Below, in pieces: positions 1-8,242 of a stretch of DNA of 11,222 nucleotides (positions within the stretch are counted from its first letter, which is position 1; every line of letters starts with the position of its first letter). The translations under genes and the position numbers were made by a program. The notes below the pieces were generated by a model, which saw only the letters and a program-made list of their open reading frames with translations, was not told where the DNA came from and did no database searches. Where the stretch lies: the NCBI GenBank assembly GCA_002763225.1, contig PFAI01000058.1:1-11222 (forward strand), given 5' to 3'. Source of the stretch: Candidatus Diapherotrites archaeon CG10_big_fil_rev_8_21_14_0_10_31_34. GTDB lineage: Archaea > Iainarchaeota > Iainarchaeia > Iainarchaeales > 1-14-0-10-31-34.

Positions 1-2185
1 CATCAATTAACATCCAGACAATAGGCATATCACTTTCTTTTTTTTCTCCTTCAATTAATTTTATTTCTTCTTCTTTTCTGTAAAGCATTCTTTCTTCAAA
101 CAATTTTTTTCCAATTAAAGCAACAATTATTTCTCTTGTTCCTTCCATTCCAATTGCCTGACGATAAGCAGAAACATCAATAATAGTTATTTTTCCTGGT
201 TCAGCTAAATCCTTTATTTTGGTTCCTTCTTTTTCAAACAAACCCCAGCTTTTAGCTACCTTTAATCTGCCTATTACTGCGTCCTTGGTTTTTTTGTCTG
301 CATCTTTATCTAATTGAACAGCAGAAATAAGTTTTGGAATATCATATAAAGTTCCAAACTTTTCTTTTATTTCATCAACTATTCTTGAAAGCAATACTCC
401 TTCTGCTTCCTTCCAGCTTAAATTAAATAATGCAAGCCATTCCTCTGATTCAAGTTCAGAAACTTTTAAAGTAAATGCTCCATCCACTGGAATCTTTTTT
501 TCTTTATAAAACGAAAGTTTTCCTTTTGGAACCAAAACTCTTGCATCAGTTTTGTCTGGAGTCAAATCCCAGTTAAACAATTCAGCTTTTTCTTCTTTGT
601 TTGGAACTTTCAAGGTCCAGAAAATTCCTACAGTGTCAATTGCAATAACAGAAATCCTTTTTTTTATGCTGATAGGCTGTCTTGCAAACTCTTCAAGCAA
701 AACTGCTAGCGAATATGAGTTATGGACAATAATGTCGTTTGCAACAAAATTGTGGTTTTCTGGAACAGTTAAATCATAAACCCAAAAATCGCCATTTAAT
801 TCTTCTATTGATTTTATTTCATCCCAAAAAATATCTGATTGGGCAATTAACTGAATTAACTCATTCTCATCGGCTCTTGCTATTTGAAGAAGTTTTTGTC
901 TGCTAGGGGAATAATGCATGCTTTCCCTTAAAGATTTGGGAAACTTATACCCTATCTTTCTCCCTATTTCAGCCCAGTTTTTTGGTCTATAGTGATCCCA
1001 AATTTCTTTTGGAACAGTGTCAATATTAGGGTTTCTCTTCAAAAACCTGATTTCTTGTAATGCATTTTTTTGTCTTAACTCTTTTTCTCCAAAAAAACTA
1101 ATTTCCTTCAAAAACTTTTCAATGTTTTCTCCTTTTAACTCTAACTCAAAACTACCAAAAGTTTTTTCATTAAGCACGTTTATTTTTTTTCTTAATATAC
1201 TGAAAATCTCAAATCTAGTTAACAAGTGTTGAATAGATCTGATTATTTGCTCTGAGTTTGACGCACAGGAAACCCTCCAGCTTTTTGTATTGGAATCAAA
1301 ATAAATTGTTCCGTCACAGCTAAAATATCTGTTCAAGAACAAGGCAACTTTTTGTTTTGGTATTTTAAAAATTATTTCAGGAATAACTTTGTTTGCTGAA
1401 GTTAAATTGTAAATCCCTAATTCTTTAAGCCAGTTCTTTAAAGTATGCGGATTAACTTTCTTATCCCCCAAAATCTTTTTTTTAAGGCTTTTGCACACTA
1501 CCCTGTAATTGTTTTTTTGGCTTAAGTTTACAGTTAAATTTAAATCAAAATCATTCACTGCATTCTTGAAGTCCTCTATTAAAACTTTATCTTCGTTGCT
1601 GAACCAGACAGTTTGCAGTTTTGTGTGCCCTTCTGCAATCAGGTAAGCCAAAAGCTTTACTTCGCTTTCCTTCAAGAATTCTTCCCCAAAAACTTCTGTT
1701 TTTCTCGGCGTTGCAATCCTTGAACCTTTATTTAATTCTTGTACAGGAATCCAACCATTAATAGTAAGCAACGGATGTTCTGGAGTCAGTTTAATTTCTT
1801 TTCCACTTCTCAAGGAAATCTTAAGCATCCTGTTTACTTTTCTTTTGTAAAATTCAGTTTTATTTGCCTTCTCAATTTTATACTTGTGATTCAAATTAAG
1901 TATTTTTCTTTTGTCTTTCTCCAAAGCTTTTATTGGAGTTAAAGAGCCATCCTCTAAAGTTATCAAAGTATCTCCGTCAAGGCATTTTCCTCCACCTCTT
2001 TTGCCGCAGATTAAAACCACATGAGGCTTGGCTATATCCATCAAGATTTTTCTTCCTAAAACAGGGTTTTCGCCTGAACTCATAACCACTTTACCAATAT
2101 AAGCAGTTCCTTTTTCCCTGTATTTTTCCAGGTCATGAAGGCTTCTTCCAATAACAGCTTTTTTTTCTCCTAAATCAATTGACAT
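1..2185 (-). CDS. HerA/FtsK-superfamily (DUF87-like) P-loop ATPase precursor containing an intein; 3' end lies beyond the window edge
   Basis: Manual translation from ATG at 2185: MSIDLGEKKAVIGRS...KILMDIAKPHVVLICGKRGGGK|intein|SYSLAVLLEE...VIAIDTVGIFWTLK...ITIIDVS...MPIVWMLID(E). Spliced Walker A is GKRGGGKS; Walker B hhhhDE is at the window edge. The reading frame is consistent at the start, both splice junctions and position 1. Absent from the ORF track because its stop is outside the window. Confidence 0.9.
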   Translation of the reverse strand, partial: MSIDLGEKKAVIGRSLHDLEKYREKGTAYIGKVVMSSGENPVLGRKILMDIAKPHVVLICGKRGGGKCLDGDTLITLEDGSLTPIKALEKDKRKILNLNHKYKIEKANKTEFYKRKVNRMLKISLRSGKEIKLTPEHPLLTINGWIPVQELNKGSRIATPRKTEVFGEEFLKESEVKLLAYLIAEGHTKLQTVWFSNEDKVLIEDFKNAVNDFDLNLTVNLSQKNNYRVVCKSLKKKILGDKKVNPHTLKNWLKELGIYNLTSANKVIPEIIFKIPKQKVALFLNRYFSCDGTIYFDSNTKSWRVSCASNSEQIIRSIQHLLTRFEIFSILRKKINVLNEKTFGSFELELKGENIEKFLKEISFFGEKELRQKNALQEIRFLKRNPNIDTVPKEIWDHYRPKNWAEIGRKIGYKFPKSLRESMHYSPSRQKLLQIARADENELIQLIAQSDIFWDEIKSIEELNGDFWVYDLTVPENHNFVANDIIVHNSYSLAVLLEEFARQPISIKKRISVIAIDTVGIFWTLKVPNKEEKAELFNWDLTPDKTDARVLVPKGKLSFYKEKKIPVDGAFTLKVSELESEEWLALFNLSWKEAEGVLLSRIVDEIKEKFGTLYDIPKLISAVQLDKDADKKTKDAVIGRLKVAKSWGLFEKEGTKIKDLAEPGKITIIDVSAYRQAIGMEGTREIIVALIGKKLFEERMLYRKEEEIKLIEGEKKESDMPIVWMLID
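719..1984 (-). mobile_element. Intein (422 aa) with LAGLIDADG homing endonuclease, inserted in Walker A of the ATPase
   Basis: Block A CLDGDTLITLEDGS starts at 1984; block B KLTPEHPLL; endonuclease blocks C (LLAYLIAEGH) and E (FLNRYFSCDG); block H-like IQHLLTRFEI; blocks F/G WVYDLTVPENHNFVANDIIVHN end at 719, followed by the +1 Ser nucleophile. Confidence 0.95.
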
Positions 2186-2343
2186 AATTATCAGTAATAC
2201 AACGCAAAACACAATTAAATAGTTTGCGTTCTGCCTTTTTCAGAAAAATGCAAGCTGCCAAAAAGATTTTTGCAAAACAAAAACTTTATCAACGGCATTC
2301 AGCCTCAAAAAACATTAAAAACTGTTTCAAAGGAAAATCTTTA

Positions 2344-3630: not shown

Positions 3631-3986
3631 TTTTTGTTCAACCTTTTTTTGAAAAAGGTTGTGGAAGTTTTTTTCTTTTGGCAAAGAAGGTCTTTTTTTG
3701 TTGAACCTTTTTTGAAAGGTTGTGTTTTTGATACAACTTTTTTCTTTTTTGTTGAACCTTTTTTAAAAAGGTTCTGGTATTGAAAGTAAGGAATTATTTT
3801 TTGGTATTGTGTTAAGGAAGTTAAGCATCCTTTTGGCAACCTGCCTTTTGGAAAAGGCGGGTAAAAAGGTTTGTGCCAAGCCATTAAAATAAAACTGGGG
3901 GGTCTTATTAGTAATTTTACGGCTTGGCACAAGCGTGGGAGTAAAGTAAAACTTTTCTTTTGATAAAACTTTTTCTAAAAGTTTTG
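3631..3986 (+). repeat. Cluster of AT-rich REP-like palindromes (TTTTG-N3-AAC/AAA-CTTTT-loop-AAAAG-GTT/TTT)
   Basis: Units at 3631-3661, 3696-3722, 3747-3774, 3958-3986, a GC-richer variant at 3831-3862 and a partial at 3726-3744. The unit at 3631-3661 nearly matches the reverse complement of 8188-8218. Confidence 0.8.
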
Positions 3987-4448: not shown

Positions 4449-4488
4449 GTCATATCATGATAGTATCATGATATTTAAAAGCTTTTCG
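4431..4488 (-). promoter_or_regulatory. BRE/TATA promoter of the wHTH gene with three TATCATGAT(A) palindromic operator-like sites
   Basis: Minus strand reads CGAAAAGC TTTTAAATA, about 25-30 nt upstream of ATG 4448. Perfect 10-bp palindromes TATCATGATA at 4453-4462 and 4464-4473; third copy TATCATGAT at 4433-4441. Confidence 0.7.
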
Positions 4489-4544
4489 TTTTTGGATTTT
4501 AGATTAGAAGCCAATTATATAAATTTATATAATTTAAAAATTTG

Positions 4545-4587
4545 AAAAAAAAGAAATTGTTTGATTTGACAAAAGCAAATCAAACAA
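4545..4587 (-). terminator. Hairpin plus U-tract downstream of the acidic-peptide ORF
   Basis: Perfect 12-bp stem TTGTTTGATTTG (4557-4568) / CAAATCAAACAA (4576-4587) with a 7-nt loop, followed on the minus strand by TTTCTTTTTTTT (4556-4545). Confidence 0.7.
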
Positions 4588-4612
4588 GTTAAAACAGTTT
4601 TTCTGAGTTTAC

Positions 4613-4663
4613 TTAGTCGTCGTCTTCTGTTTCTTCTATGTCGTCAAAGTCTTCGTCGCCCAT
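4613..4663 (-). CDS. Putative 16-aa acidic micropeptide MGDEDFDDIEETEDDD
   Basis: ATG at 4663, TAA at 4615-4613, AAGGAGG at 4678-4672 with an 8-nt spacer (alba and the 282-aa gene have 9 and 7 nt after GGAGG). 11 of 16 residues are D/E. An in-frame ATG at 4696 without an SD would give 27 aa. Confidence 0.6.
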   Translation of the reverse strand: MGDEDFDDIEETEDDD

Positions 4664-4848
4664 AAAAAATTCCTCCTTATTTAAAGTAATAAGCATAAAA
4701 TCAATTGCATTAAAAATAGCTTTAGCTGGAATAAAACTCAAAGAAACAGTTTTTGTTTTTTCAGCTTAATGCTTTTTTAAAAAACCACTGCACACCAAAA
4801 TTCTAAAAATTTTGTCTCCACAGCGTAACTATTATACCTCTATCAAAG

Positions 4849-4864
4849 TATTTAAATGTTTCTA
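4849..4864 (-). promoter_or_regulatory. Putative BRE/TATA promoter for the micropeptide transcript
   Basis: Minus strand TAGAAACA TTTAAATA; implies a transcription start near 4825-4830. Confidence 0.5.
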
Positions 4865-4877
4865 AAAAAGAAAAAAA

Positions 4878-5153
4878 CAATGCTATCACGATTCCACTCG
4901 CGAGTAACAGTGCGAAACATAAAGTTGCGCCAGCCCCATGCAAAGCACGGTGCATCGTGTTTAACCGGCGAAACGGTTATCGTGCTCAAACGACGAAACA
5001 GCAGGACCGAAGGTCGTGCATTTTGCTTAAACTTTTCTTAAAAGTTTATTGCAGTGCTATCGAAGATAGCACGCGTTACTCACGTTTTAAAGCAGTGCTA
5101 CTGAAAGTAGCACGCTCTCTTCCGAGGAGCAGCTCGGAGCGGACGCAACCGGC
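4878..5153 (+). repeat. GC-rich mosaic hairpin repeat element, copy A (REP/BIME-like)
   Basis: Shares blocks with 7035-7150: 4980-4999 vs 7066-7085 (19/20), 5044-5081 vs 7086-7123 (37/38), 5139-5151 vs 7124-7136 (13/13), and ACAGCAGGAC...GTCGTGC. Contains internally duplicated hairpin modules and is much richer in CpG than its flanks. Confidence 0.85.
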
Positions 5154-5426
5154 TTATTTCTTCATTAGAATTTCTATTGAAGAAACTTTTAATGGCCCGC
5201 CTTCATCTGTTGCTATTTCTTCTGTTGAAGTTGAAATGCTAGTAATTTTTAAGTCTTTCATAAACTTGTTTCTGACTATTTCAGATACATCAACTGCCCT
5301 GGAAATTGCTTTTCCTCTTGCTTTAATTGCTATTTCAGTTGCTCCTGAATTAACTTGTGTTACAACAGCCAAAACATATGCCATTGTGCCTTTCTTTCCA
5401 ATAAAAATAGTATTTTCTTCTGCCAT
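5154..5426 (-). CDS. albA: DNA/RNA-binding chromatin protein Alba
   Basis: 90 aa with [31 protein letters not shown] and VSSIEI motifs; SD GGAGGTG at 5440-5434. Confidence 0.96.
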
Positions 5427-5552
5427 AACTCTGCACCTCCAAAGTGTTATTTATAGTTTATTGTTTACTGAATATGGCTGTAGTTAATTATAAAAGATTG
5501 TGTTTATTAAAGTTGCGTTAAAAAGAAAAAAAATAGGAAAATCTGAGATAAA

Positions 5553-6401
5553 TTATCTCAGATACTTTAAAGTTGCGTCAAAGATTCCTTTTGAATACCC
5601 TGGGTCATAACCAAAATAAAGGCTTTTTCCGATTACAAGCTTTTTTTCAACTATTGCTGGATATTGGTCTGCTTCGCTTTCATAAGGATACATTTCAATC
5701 CATGCAATCTGGTTTCCTGTAATATTAACCGGCAAAGTTTCAAGAGTATAATTGTATCCTCCTTCTCCTGGAGCATATTCTATTCCTTTCATTATTGGAT
5801 GCTTGAAATCGTCTCTGTAAATTCTTCCTGTAACATAAACTTTTTTAGTGCATCCTCTTACATCATCTTCTCCTATAATATCACAAGAAACAGGGACAAT
5901 GTCTCCAAAAGTTGCTTCCCAGCCTAATATTGCTGAATCATTTGTTCTTCTAATACCTGAATCCATTACTAAAATGAATTTTCCACCTTTGCCGACATAA
6001 TCCTTTATTGCTTCACCTAACTGCCTTGAAATATCTTTTTCTGATTCCAAATGCTGGTCTAAAACCACAATATCATATTCACCTAAAATGTCTTCTGGAT
6101 TAGTTTTAAGTCTGTCAGCACCCCTGAAATCATATCTGACTAAATCTTTGTCCTGATTTAATACGTCTTTGAATTCAGCTGAAGGACTTCCAATAATCAG
6201 CATGCGCATTGGACCTTTATCAGTTAACCCTGGAATATTCCAGAAACCAAACTGATGCCCTAAAAAAGCAATTATTATTATAATTAAAATTAATGGGATT
6301 ATTCCTTCTAAGGAATACTTTAGTTTTGACTGAACTCCTGAATCATGTGGACCAAAATCCTGAGACATTGGTTCAGGCGCCATTCCTCCTTCATCGTACA
6401 T
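5553..6401 (-). CDS. Membrane-anchored protein with class I glutamine-amidotransferase-like (flavodoxin-type) domain; paralog of 7151-8113
   Basis: One hydrophobic segment (IIPLILIIIIIAFLG), then MLIIG, YDIVVLD, IKDYVGKGGKFILVMDSG, HPIMKGI, GKSLYF. SD GGAGG at 6413-6409. Confidence 0.75.
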   Translation of the reverse strand: MYDEGGMAPEPMSQDFGPHDSGVQSKLKYSLEGIIPLILIIIIIAFLGHQFGFWNIPGLTDKGPMRMLIIGSPSAEFKDVLNQDKDLVRYDFRGADRLKTNPEDILGEYDIVVLDQHLESEKDISRQLGEAIKDYVGKGGKFILVMDSGIRRTNDSAILGWEATFGDIVPVSCDIIGEDDVRGCTKKVYVTGRIYRDDFKHPIMKGIEYAPGEGGYNYTLETLPVNITGNQIAWIEMYPYESEADQYPAIVEKKLVIGKSLYFGYDPGYSKGIFDATLKYLR

Positions 6402-6576
6402 CTTCCTTCCTCCAAAAAAATTATTGTATACATTAATTGTTTTTAGTTCTTTAAATATTTATCTTTAAAGACTTTCAAACTGCAATATTAAAGCGTTTTT
6501 AGTTTATAAAGCTTTCTGATTAAGAAATGAAAAAAAAAGCAAAAGAATTTAAACCAGAAAAAACATTAAATAAAAC

Positions 6577-7047
6577 ATGAAAAAGATTTTTATTGTTTTA
6601 ATTTTGGTTTCAGTTATTTTTTCTGGTTGTGTTGAACCAAAACCCGCACAAGAAAAAATATTTAATGTCGCTGAATTATTAGAAAATCCTGTTTATGAAA
6701 AAGAAATAAAAATTCAGGGAAAAGTAAGTGGTTTAGGAGAAGTTTTATGTTTGTGTTTTGATTTAACTTCAGGAGAAAAAAGTTTAGTAATTTGGTATGA
6801 TCCAGTAATGGTTAAAGGAATTGAAAACGGAGATCAAGTAATTGTAACAGGCAAATTAGACTCAAAAGAAGCTGGAGGAGCAAATCCGGGAAAAGATTTT
6901 TGGGCAACAAAAATTGAATTGGAGTTGAAATCTGAAAAACTTTGCAATTCAGATTTAGATTGTGGAAAAGGAGAAAAATGTTTGGATACACAATGGTCTG
7001 ATAATGCATTTTATAAATTGTGTTTTGAAGATAGACAGCAGGACTGA
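6577..7047 (+). CDS. Putative lipoprotein with OB-fold-like domain and small Cys-rich C-terminal module
   Basis: MKK + hydrophobic core + FSGC lipobox-like motif; VAELLENP...IKIQGKV...GDQVIVTGKL resembles an OB fold; CNSDLDCGKGEKC module near the C-terminus. Confidence 0.75.
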   Translation: MKKIFIVLILVSVIFSGCVEPKPAQEKIFNVAELLENPVYEKEIKIQGKVSGLGEVLCLCFDLTSGEKSLVIWYDPVMVKGIENGDQVIVTGKLDSKEAGGANPGKDFWATKIELELKSEKLCNSDLDCGKGEKCLDTQWSDNAFYKLCFEDRQQD

Positions 7048-7150
7048 ATGAAATGAAGTCGTGCCTCGTGCTCAAACGGCGAAACGTTTATTACAGTGCT
7101 ATCGAAGATAGCACGCGTTACTCGCGGACGCAACCGCGATGCGAAAGCGG
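7035..7150 (+). repeat. GC-rich mosaic hairpin repeat element, copy B
   Basis: Hairpins GACTGAATGAAATGAAGTC, AAACG-GCGAAA-CGTTT, GTGCTATC-GAA-GATAGCAC and TCGCGG-ACGCAA-CCGCGA; near-identical blocks to 4980-5151. It fills the whole gap between two convergent genes. Confidence 0.85.
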
Positions 7151-8113
7151 CTATTCAAGCAAAGCATAATACATGTTTTCTACAAACAAAAAAGTTTTGT
7201 TTGGTTGTCCTTCCATTGAAAAAGTTTCTGGGGGAACAGCAAAATAAACTATTGTTTCGCCTAAACCTGAAGCAGAAGAAACCATTATAATTGAAAAAAC
7301 GTCTCCGTAATTTGTTCCTTTTGGTTTAACTAAACCTTTTTCATCTATTATTGCACTAAAAGCATCAACAGTTAAAACTTCATTATTGTATTTATCCAAG
7401 CGTTTTTTTACAACAGAAAAATCTGCTCTCATTTCAAATCTTGGGTCTAATCCTTTAACTAAATCATGTGTTGGTCCAGGCGCTTTCCTGAAGTAACCAA
7501 TAAAAGGAAATTCATCTCCGCAGGTTTTTATATCACAGTAATTTCCAATAAAGCTTACTGACAAAAGCTTATCCAAGTCAACTGAATAATTTGCATCGTC
7601 TTTAATTTGTTTTCTTGCCCAAGGGCCAATTTCTGTGTCAGCCATTCCAGGGCTTCTGTCTGATTCTAATAACATTAAATCAGTGTCATAGGGTTCGGTT
7701 CCTGAATCTCCTATCCAAACTAATTTTCCTCCTTCAGAAACATAATCAATAAACAAAGAAATTTCTTCTGTGCTCATTTTTTTTGCTCTGTCAACTATAA
7801 CTAATTTATAGTTTTTCAGCAAACCAGGACTGATGTTTTTTAATTGAACCATTTCAGCTCTCTTGCCTAAATACTCTGGATTTTCAATTGCTTTTTCTAA
7901 AAGAAACGGGTCTCCTAAACCTGTTTCTCCATATACAATCAAAATATTTGGTTCACCTGCAAACAAATAATAAACTGAACACCAGCCAGGAATAGCAGAG
8001 CATTTAGTTACTCCTGCCCAAGTCATTATTCCAAGAATAATCATGATTAAAAGAATCAAAGTCAAAACATGAAATGAATCATTAATATATCTTCTAATTT
8101 GTGCTTCTTCCAT
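7151..8113 (-). CDS. Membrane-anchored protein with class I glutamine-amidotransferase-like domain; paralog of 5553-6401
   Basis: TM segment VLTLILLIMIILGIM, then ILIVYG, YKLVIVD, FIDYVSEGGKLVWIGDSG, HDLVKGL, GETIVYF. ATG 8113 (MEEAQ) is preferred because the track's extension to 8143 reads through repeat DNA. Confidence 0.75.
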   Translation of the reverse strand: MEEAQIRRYINDSFHVLTLILLIMIILGIMTWAGVTKCSAIPGWCSVYYLFAGEPNILIVYGETGLGDPFLLEKAIENPEYLGKRAEMVQLKNISPGLLKNYKLVIVDRAKKMSTEEISLFIDYVSEGGKLVWIGDSGTEPYDTDLMLLESDRSPGMADTEIGPWARKQIKDDANYSVDLDKLLSVSFIGNYCDIKTCGDEFPFIGYFRKAPGPTHDLVKGLDPRFEMRADFSVVKKRLDKYNNEVLTVDAFSAIIDEKGLVKPKGTNYGDVFSIIMVSSASGLGETIVYFAVPPETFSMEGQPNKTFLFVENMYYALLE

Positions 8114-8117
8114 AACC

Positions 8118-8242
8118 AAACCTTTTTCTAAAAGCTTTACCAAAAACTGCTTTCAGCAAAAACCTTTTTCTAAAAGCTTTACCAAAACAACCTTTTTAAA
8201 AAAAAGGTTGAACAAAAAAATTAGTTTCAGCAAAACCTTTTT
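8118..8242 (-). repeat. Second cluster of AT-rich REP-like palindromes, opposite orientation to 3631-3986
   Basis: Two identical 28-mers AAACCTTTTTCTAAAAGCTTTACCAAAA (8118-8145, 8160-8187), CAACCTTTTT-AAA-AAAAAGGTTG-AACAAAA (8188-8217), and a partial copy TTTCAGCAAAACCTTTTT (8225-8242). Confidence 0.85.

Follow-up and report, generated by a model that had tools for sequence, protein, structure and literature searches.

Repetitive extragenic palindromes (REPs) marked by a GTAG tag, together with their composite forms, the bacterial interspersed mosaic elements (BIMEs) and REPINs, are portrayed in the accessible portions of three papers (PMC6006769, PMC8266576, PMC3733652) as short extragenic palindromes that occur in many copies, form head-to-head dimers and mosaic clusters, lie downstream of genes, supply stop codons with their ends, and exhibit lineage-specific sequence types. 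For a second group, comprising the CGTC REPs and the Neisseria dRS3-NTS sequences, the corresponding portions of PMC3733652 and PMC11893778 report no transposase, and describe cleavage of NTS by GIY-YIG nucleases of the Ssn type. Here we analyze an 11,222-nt contig (PFAI01000058.1, hereafter the window) of Candidatus Diapherotrites archaeon CG10_big_fil_rev_8_21_14_0_10_31_34, in which two loci, A (4878-5153) and B (7035-7150), are built from a two-hairpin DNA unit. These units work like REP/BIME mosaics and like the double-hairpin elements of fungal mitochondria, yet by the features tested they fall outside both the GTAG and the CGTC family.

All the GTAG REP and BIME properties listed above recur in the units. 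The differences are that the GTAG or GTGG tetranucleotide is absent from the hairpin foot (TAG occurs solely across dimer joints), that each unit has two hairpins and a fixed linker, that no Y1 gene is flanked by them, that the host is an archaeon, that some copies have long target duplications, and that tRNA ends and introns are strongly targeted. For Archaea, the IS200-type is the only subclass reported in the accessible part of PMC6006769. The linker followed by hairpin 2 resembles the layout of NTS, i.e. a CGT-containing tag located 5' of a CCCGC-type stem (PMC3733652, PMC11893778, as far as their accessible text describes it); in the unit linkers CGT is followed by T, G or C, and the supplementary motif tables of both papers could bear on family membership. 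Unlike the NTS-Ssn system, the units do not match the published SRM consensus (one unrelated match, vs 0-2 in shuffles), have a stem of 6 bp and no 3' tail, and flank no GIY-YIG gene.

Fungal mitochondrial double-hairpin elements were reportedly described by Paquin et al. in 2000, according to papers that cite that work. As far as the accessible text of PMC10085805 and PMC4478555 describes them, these elements and the mitochondrial GC clusters are likewise GC-rich two-hairpin units in AT-rich genomes, found in intergenic regions and inside structural RNA genes, prone to merging and shuffling, polymorphic and without a known enzyme, while differing from our units in that the latter reside in an archaeal chromosome and have duplications of 10-41 nt or none, as opposed to 2 nt in the GC clusters. 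We treat this likeness, which is one of architecture and behaviour, as an analogy. Elements that integrate into tRNA genes are a further point of comparison; tyrosine integrases use att sites in the T-loop. Like them, some of our arrays are bordered by a tRNA gene on one side and a duplicate of its 3' end on the other; unlike them, the units show the duplication pattern also at the ends of protein genes and at a ribosome-binding site, contain no integrase, and in most copies lack a duplication. We rejected an origin from miniature inverted-repeat transposable elements or ends of DDE insertion sequences (IS), as the unit ends are not inverted repeats, the duplications vary in length, and the IS5-like genes of the genome have other ends.

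Grammar, covariation and dispersal of the unit

The window is contig C55 of the genome termed here G000 (1.04 Mb, 65 contigs, 81% complete, 31% GC); relatives are denoted G001-G005 etc., contigs C, and locus records L. The GC fraction is 0.50 in locus A and 0.53 in locus B, vs 0.32 in the window, which encodes the archaeal markers Alba and Sec61-beta. For the 330-aa protein encoded next to locus B the commonest taxon of the nearest clusters is Ca. Iainarchaeota; together with the archaeal markers, this indicates a member of the DPANN archaea. A related record, L058, carries the label Ca. Micrarchaeota. Neither locus is an assembly artefact, because contigs from other sequencing runs (which may be one campaign) span all of locus B (X6 record 30, X11 record 15), and three pieces (X3 records 18-20) represent locus A, with a gap at 5070-5121 among the pieces listed, in addition to which 233 further pieces exist.

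Analysis of the whole genome reveals a single polar unit of ~45-57 nt, comprising hairpin 1, a linker (mostly of 8 nt) and hairpin 2. Hairpin 1 starts with G and ends with C, and measures either 19 nt (7+5+7 or 8+3+8) or 27-29 nt with tandem GA steps; approximately half of the 19-nt hairpins possess a purine-rich, GAA-type loop on the unit strand (19 TGAAA vs 16 TTTAT and others). The linker core is CGT in GC-rich units and TTTG in AT-rich ones, and hairpin 2 (18-23 nt) has either a 6-bp stem with a purine-rich 6-nt loop or an AT-rich stem of 9-10 bp. The bases preceding hairpin 1 conform to NNCA: of the 64 full units outside dimers, 60 have A at -1 and 55 have C at -2 (TGCA 15, AGCA 11, TTCA 7).

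We called 65 full units and 99 linker-plus-hairpin-2 parts in G000, vs 0-1 in shuffled genomes; a few of the calls are false (e.g. C23 22140, which overlaps a tRNA), and 28 partial calls inside called open reading frames (ORFs) are doubtful. Together they occupy 0.56% of the genome and are spread over 44 of its 65 contigs. Head-to-head joints hold 12 of 76 full units, and mosaic chains occur at loci A and B as well as on C31, C32 and C51. All seven module sequences that the initial annotation had listed are found where it placed them, and its picture of covarying modular hairpins in BIME-like mosaics is borne out and extended, since they are dispersed genome-wide and polymorphic between relatives: at up to 3 mismatches the modules recur at 34 loci of G000 (0-1 match per module in shuffled genomes), so the two copies in the window are not the only ones.

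Beyond G000, the 276-nt locus A used as a query (E<=0.1) matches all 8 family relatives and 20 of 41 genomes overall, the distant ones weakly. A linker-plus-loop pattern matched 6 of 201 genomes of the class, with 0 control matches, and the AT-rich pattern 30 of 133, being abundant in family f1 and G023 (controls: 0-1 match per genome). Four unit patterns gave 0 matches in viral contigs, and a metagenome scan yielded 5 unit loci, three from the same species, with no enzyme there. Five Acidobacteriota records (L047, L050, L053, L060 at the pattern match, and L057) carry an identical 19-nt hairpin 1 after CA with a different tail that they share; this is possibly a bacterial REP-like family with an identical hairpin 1. 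G000 also harbours unrelated small repeat families (C35:2463-2496, C35:3712-3739, C37:6856-6889, and on C23, C31, C36 and C64), one of which corresponds to the ends of an IS5-like element.

The stems covary. When units were defined solely by the hairpin-1 end, linker and loop, so that pairing stood outside the definition, hairpin 2 exhibited Watson-Crick pairs in 186 of 192 cells (32 units of G000) and 130 of 132 cells (22 units of relatives), as compared with 0.42-0.44, and at most 0.59-0.64, when arms were swapped between units. The 32 units contain 19 different hairpin-2 stems, with up to four pair types per position; the cells are not independent events, as the copies are related. G-T pairs number only 2 among the 192 cells and 0 among the 132, and the strand of a unit that neighbouring RNAs read differs by site, being the bottom strand next to stops (26) or the 3' ends of tRNAs (25), the top strand next to tRNA 5' ends (13), and either strand in introns (12 and 3). 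The rarity of G-T pairs and the reading of either strand favour a DNA-level structure over an RNA motif. Rfam covariance models gave 0 matches in the window at E<=1.

Placement and variation between relatives

The unit is placed in a polar manner. In 24 of 63 non-intronic full units the hairpin-2 end comes to within 3 nt of, or overlaps by up to 3 nt, the end of a gene or tRNA (stop codon 11, tRNA 3' end 8, tRNA 5' end 5); with the same 3-nt window the hairpin-1 end does so in none of the 63. In a random intergenic control, whose window excludes overlaps, 1.1% of positions had a stop and 0.06% a tRNA end at a distance of 0-3 nt. Loci A and B both finish in a stop codon, and 7 of 10 units on two large contigs of relatives are placed likewise. 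A unit is found at the end of, or inside, 22 of 38 tRNA calls shorter than 400 nt (one 2.9-kb call was excluded, and a few calls are doubtful), and one full unit lies inside a match to archaeal RNase P RNA (G000:C47:1739-1782, L209), with a unit at the same place in G002. Of 7 candidate sites of in-frame insertion inside protein genes, none could be confirmed against a homolog. For a comparison of unit orientation with replication direction on one contig of G005 (C2), 18 units were minus and 12 plus, with no clear skew switch there. Overlap with stop codons is likewise reported for bacterial REPs in the accessible part of PMC3733652, so selection on a compact genome may explain part of the placement. 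In G023, a tRNA-Ser call (L075:654-2364) has a 1.6-kb insert with small ORFs and a linker-plus-hairpin-2 at its end.

Sites A and B, occupied in G000, are empty or differently filled in relatives. Comparison of empty and filled sites, which the initial annotation had proposed, shows that site A (at the Alba stop) is empty in G001-G004 and holds a lone different hairpin in G005, while site B (at the stop of the 330-aa gene) has a related single unit in G002 and none in G001, G003, G004 and G005. Similarly, L089 has a 135-nt array that is missing at the matching C22 site, the flanks being 86-91% identical. Composites are copied as blocks, as the ~100-nt segment 5049-5151 recurs on C1, C9 and C32 with 94-96% identity between other flanks (four sites in all). 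One contig, X6 (depth 2, side 28 nt), which may derive from a relative, skips 6524-7153, i.e. the cargo gene and locus B. The spacers 4450-4880 and 6400-7150 of the window are cargo hotspots, in which the genes of relatives (methyltransferases, toxin-antitoxin pairs, lipoproteins, rubrerythrin-like proteins) differ or are missing, with or without units. A reading of locus B as an integron cassette was dropped, because the cargo varies between genomes both with and without units.

A minority of copies is accompanied by target duplications, which span 10-41 nt overall. An upstream copy of the adjoining flank was found at 14 of 163 hairpin-2 ends in G000 (permuted controls 1-4) and at 8 of 118 in relatives (controls 0-3). 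Under the stricter demand that both ends be anchored, 3 of 52 units in G000 exceed every control (duplications of ~25, 35 and 41 nt), and inspection added duplications of 10-33 nt on C13, C18, C31, C45 and C6/L088. Upstream of the unit, several of them re-create an undamaged end of the gene or tRNA. The CA in front of hairpin 1 forms the end of the downstream copy in three cases (C28, C31, L088), and for one unit without CA this copy ends in the matching non-CA bases, which suggests that CA is target sequence. On C13, C31, C45 and C47, arrays have a tRNA gene on one side and a repeat of its final 17-23 nt on the other. On the last of these contigs (G000:C47:12320-13530, L132) a Fic-domain gene lies between two copies of a tRNA 3' end together with a whole unit, an arrangement that resembles a small island whose attachment site includes the unit. 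In L087:2386-2700 an inverted pair of units, together with the final 22 nt of tRNA-Ile, occurs twice in tandem, and at G000:C13:9733-9904 the assembly collapses a tRNA-Ile tandem repeat at an N gap.

To the extent of the literature searched, which did not extend to subscription papers, figures and supplements, no published description of this unit family was found. New here are the hairpin-2-end polarity at stops and tRNA ends, the empty or differently filled sites, and the 10-41-nt target duplications in a minority of copies.

Anatomy of the window

Locus A is made up of a head-to-head dimer and, after it, a chain in which two units are nested; locus B is a chain of two units plus a half hairpin (Table 1). 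Unit 1 of locus A has one mismatch per hairpin region and was missed by the unit-calling script; a hairpin 1 identical to that of locus A unit 2 occurs at two C60 sites, and near-identical copies of the nested unit 5001-5048 are found on C47 next to a tRNA end. The right part of the composite finishes in the Alba stop codon, and the half hairpin 2 of locus B unit 2 overlaps the stop codon (7151-7153) of the 330-aa gene. The initial annotation had noticed a 71-nt core of locus B that is split in locus A: the core (7066-7136) indeed maps to 4980-4999, 5044-5081 and 5139-5151, with gaps of 44 and 57 nt. The lengths given for both extra segments were right, and we can now identify each as a whole nested unit. 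Locus A folds better than 200 of 200 dinucleotide shuffles both as DNA (z -4.3) and as RNA (z -3.7), while the folding of locus B is marginal (z -1.9; 7 of 200 shuffles equally good).

Table 1. Features of the window, with positions of the unit components
Feature	Position	Strand	Remarks
Locus A unit 1	4886-4930	-	hairpin 1 4912-4930, linker 4904-4911, hairpin 2 4886-4903; parsed by eye from genome-wide grammar
Head-to-head dimer joint, 2 nt	4931-4932	.	CA here; TA in most dimers of the genome
Locus A unit 2	4933-4979	+	hairpin 1 4933-4953, linker 4954-4961, hairpin 2 4962-4979
Linker + hairpin 2, right arm broken by next unit	4979-5000	+	
Nested unit (44-nt extra segment)	5001-5048	+	hairpin 1, linker, AT-rich hairpin 2; script-called full unit
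~100-nt composite	5049-5154	+	hairpin 1 5054-5072, linker, hairpin 2 split by nested 57-nt unit (5095-5138)
Alba gene	5154-5426	-	PF01918 E 1.8e-18; stop codon 5154-5156 overlaps last base of locus A
Variable cargo gene, predicted lipoprotein, OB-like fold	6577-7047	+	final codons and stop inside hairpin 1 of locus B
Locus B unit 1	7038-7090	+	tandem-GA hairpin 1 7038-7064, linker, hairpin 2 7073-7090; script-called full unit
Locus B unit 2	7096-7152	+	hairpin 1 7096-7114, linker, hairpin 2 7122-7139, then half hairpin 2
Cluster of AT-rich linker + hairpin 2 members, same family	3631-3774	+	
AT-rich linker + hairpin 2	3957-3985	+	overlaps end of 157-aa helix-turn-helix gene
AT-rich linker + hairpin 2	8188-8218	-	more degenerate copies at 8118-8180

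The cargo gene was not found at this site in any of the 8 family relatives. Elsewhere in the window, a HerA/FtsK-like ATPase (2-2212, minus strand) has an apparent intein of ~420 aa, an insert missing in G005 and G008, and a very short acidic ORF (4616-4662, minus strand, ~15 codons) is preceded by a ribosome-binding-like sequence, as judged from the sequence alone.

Possible mobilising activity and rival explanations

The initial annotation ascribed the spread to a REP-associated tyrosine transposase (RAYT) or IS200 enzyme of the HUH type, and proposed a search for a Y1 transposase, TnpB or GIY-YIG gene flanked by the modules; no unit-flanked gene of these kinds was found. Y1_Tnp was not found in G000 or in 4 of 5 genus relatives, and a custom profile of 11 order-level Y1 proteins gave a best E of 0.77 against G000 and two large contigs of relatives. 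Those Y1 genes that do occur in relatives are IS200/IS605 according to NCBIfam (4 of 4 tested, three over the cut-off) and have their own distinct ends. The RAYT model scored over its cut-off in 1 of 61 genomes, on a short contig (L222, G019:C175) flanked by other repeats and without units. GIY-YIG was found in 0 of 6 genus genomes, and none of the 12 strong and 11 further loci in the order is unit-flanked. DUF559 gave 1 weak match in 5 genomes, TnpB and IS110 none in 5 genomes each, and HNH was found in 1 of 5 with no unit-flanked candidate. DDE_Tnp_1 is present in 3 of 5 genomes, including two genes in G000; these are IS5-like, with ends that differ from the units. A XerA-like tyrosine recombinase is encoded in 5 of 5 genomes, with no unit within the G000 locus, and one further G000 integrase adjoins a tRNA with units. 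A reverse transcriptase was detected in 1 of 5 genus genomes (two genes in G002, L044 and L045). The RAYT contig and the two reverse-transcriptase contigs look bacterial and may be bin contamination. We collected 68 ORFs beside units from 20 G000 stretches; among the 31 scanned against Pfam, metallophosphoesterase was the only family of nuclease or transposase type, and 17 had no family. This negative is limited, because incomplete assemblies lose mobile genes.

We also dropped the possibility of a non-autonomous element derived from IS200/IS605, because the units match no element ends in 12 Y1 loci and the likeness of loops was seen by eye alone; nor do they match the ends of any other known IS element checked. 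IS200 elements of the order (L013, L016, L019, L223, L225) have a nested GC-rich hairpin over the ribosome-binding site of tnpA, whose inner stem resembles hairpin 1 by eye, and L225 shares 17 nt with the flank of a C15 unit.

The data show the unit itself with its covarying stems, its dispersal and nesting, its presence or absence between relatives, the copying of composites in blocks, and its polarity; these, together with the CA before hairpin 1 and the target duplications, speak for a mobile unit. On balance, we consider it somewhat probable that loci A and B are arrays of a non-coding, non-autonomous mobile DNA unit that spreads by copy-in on single-stranded DNA with the help of host repair. 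In such a copy-in reaction, which we infer as the route of spreading, a structure-reading nuclease acting in trans or a stalled fork would yield a target 3' end, usually after CA, and this end would be joined to, or prime on, a donor unit; repair synthesis by the host would seal the opposite side at the hairpin-2 foot, at times copying 10-41 nt of the target anew. Insertions would survive where they are harmless, i.e. behind stops, in tRNA leaders, trailers and introns that are processed away, in RNase P RNA, and in earlier units, and survival in the latter would give rise to the mosaics. Mobilisation in trans by some nuclease is possible. More specifically, and quite tentatively, the 45-57-nt units may be moved by an uncharacterised structure-specific single-strand nuclease of DPANN, with insertion after CA, hairpin 2 aimed at gene or tRNA ends, variable target duplication, and creation or lengthening of tRNA introns. 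Several observations weigh against spreading by copy-in. When the window is widened to 10 nt, 4 of 63 units have a gene or tRNA end on their hairpin-1 side, and of the 60 arrays that contain a full unit, 31 are in contact with neither a called stop nor a called tRNA. No movement of units within the species was seen across four sequencing runs. Loci A and B have no target duplication, and the strict both-end test finds one in only 3 of 52 units in G000 and 0 of 44 in relatives. C8, C15 and C18 do not fit CA in the downstream copy, which leaves the target origin of CA unsettled. Finally, no enzyme candidate was found in G000, and none of those of the relatives is flanked by units.

The failure of the enzyme searches is what would be expected if no dedicated enzyme existed, i.e. 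if a nascent strand stalled at a hairpin primed on a donor unit via a short (G)CA match, copied it, and returned slightly upstream, with self-correction of palindromes keeping the stems paired. The variable and long duplications (10-41 nt), the tandem repeats of unit plus flank in L087, L171 and C40, and singleton compensatory pairs at the outermost hairpin-2 base, which overlaps the target, also point to template switching of this kind. However, a linker of fixed length, whose core is conserved together with the loop consensus although the stems are very different, suggests that a protein recognises the units, and self-correction explains neither these features nor the polarity; we regard this explanation as rather doubtful. 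It appears unlikely that the units form a true archaeal REP system and owe their spread to a Y1 HUH transposase (a RAYT, or an IS200 TnpA working in trans) that has since been lost or is missing from the assembly. The loops of hairpin 1 do resemble, by eye, the IS200/IS605 end hairpins of relatives, the boundary CA (or CT on the other strand) matches cleavage dinucleotides of TnpA-REP given in the accessible text of PMC8266576, Y1 genes were found in 3 of the 8 family relatives, and at 81% the G000 assembly is incomplete. Against this, four unit-rich genus genomes of 90-96% completeness show no Y1, units are near a Y1 gene at 0 of 12 loci examined and 0 of 6 further ones (with no BLAST match of units to the ends in the 12), and there is no GTAG tag. 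In addition, REP or IS200 transposition is not known to make long target duplications. From the proposal of an archaeal REP-like system, the dispersed modular family of DNA hairpins is supported, and the HUH-driven spread is not.

Explanations at the RNA level fare worse. A route in which the tRNA splicing machinery cuts and joins unit-bearing tRNA introns or trailers, which a reverse transcriptase then returns to DNA, would account for the association with 22 of 38 tRNA calls and for junctions that coincide with RNA processing sites, and a precise end with a variable duplication is reminiscent of target-primed reverse transcription. We find it highly improbable, as 4 of 5 genus genomes have no reverse transcriptase and the two genes of G002 lie on 2-kb contigs without units, while introns contain units in both orientations (12 vs 3) and G-T pairs are avoided. 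We give the least credence to host-selected RNA signals (3' stabilisers, terminators or processing marks) that share sequence by chance: units do lie directly behind stop codons and tRNA ends and fold stably as RNA, but the same sites lack units in most relatives, neither locus A nor locus B has a terminator-like T run, either strand is transcribed, and Rfam gives no match.

The kind of element, i.e. small palindromic selfish DNA, is known already, and REP-type mosaics have been described for bacteria; with no enzyme and no observed movement, the value of the finding is limited for now. What the unit family adds is a counterpart of these mosaics in archaea with small genomes, one that obeys a strict two-hairpin grammar and is tied to the leaders, trailers and introns of tRNAs. 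It points to an activity that processes single-stranded DNA behind it, its sub-families are usable as strain markers, and it suggests a way, open to testing, in which tRNA introns of archaea could arise or grow.

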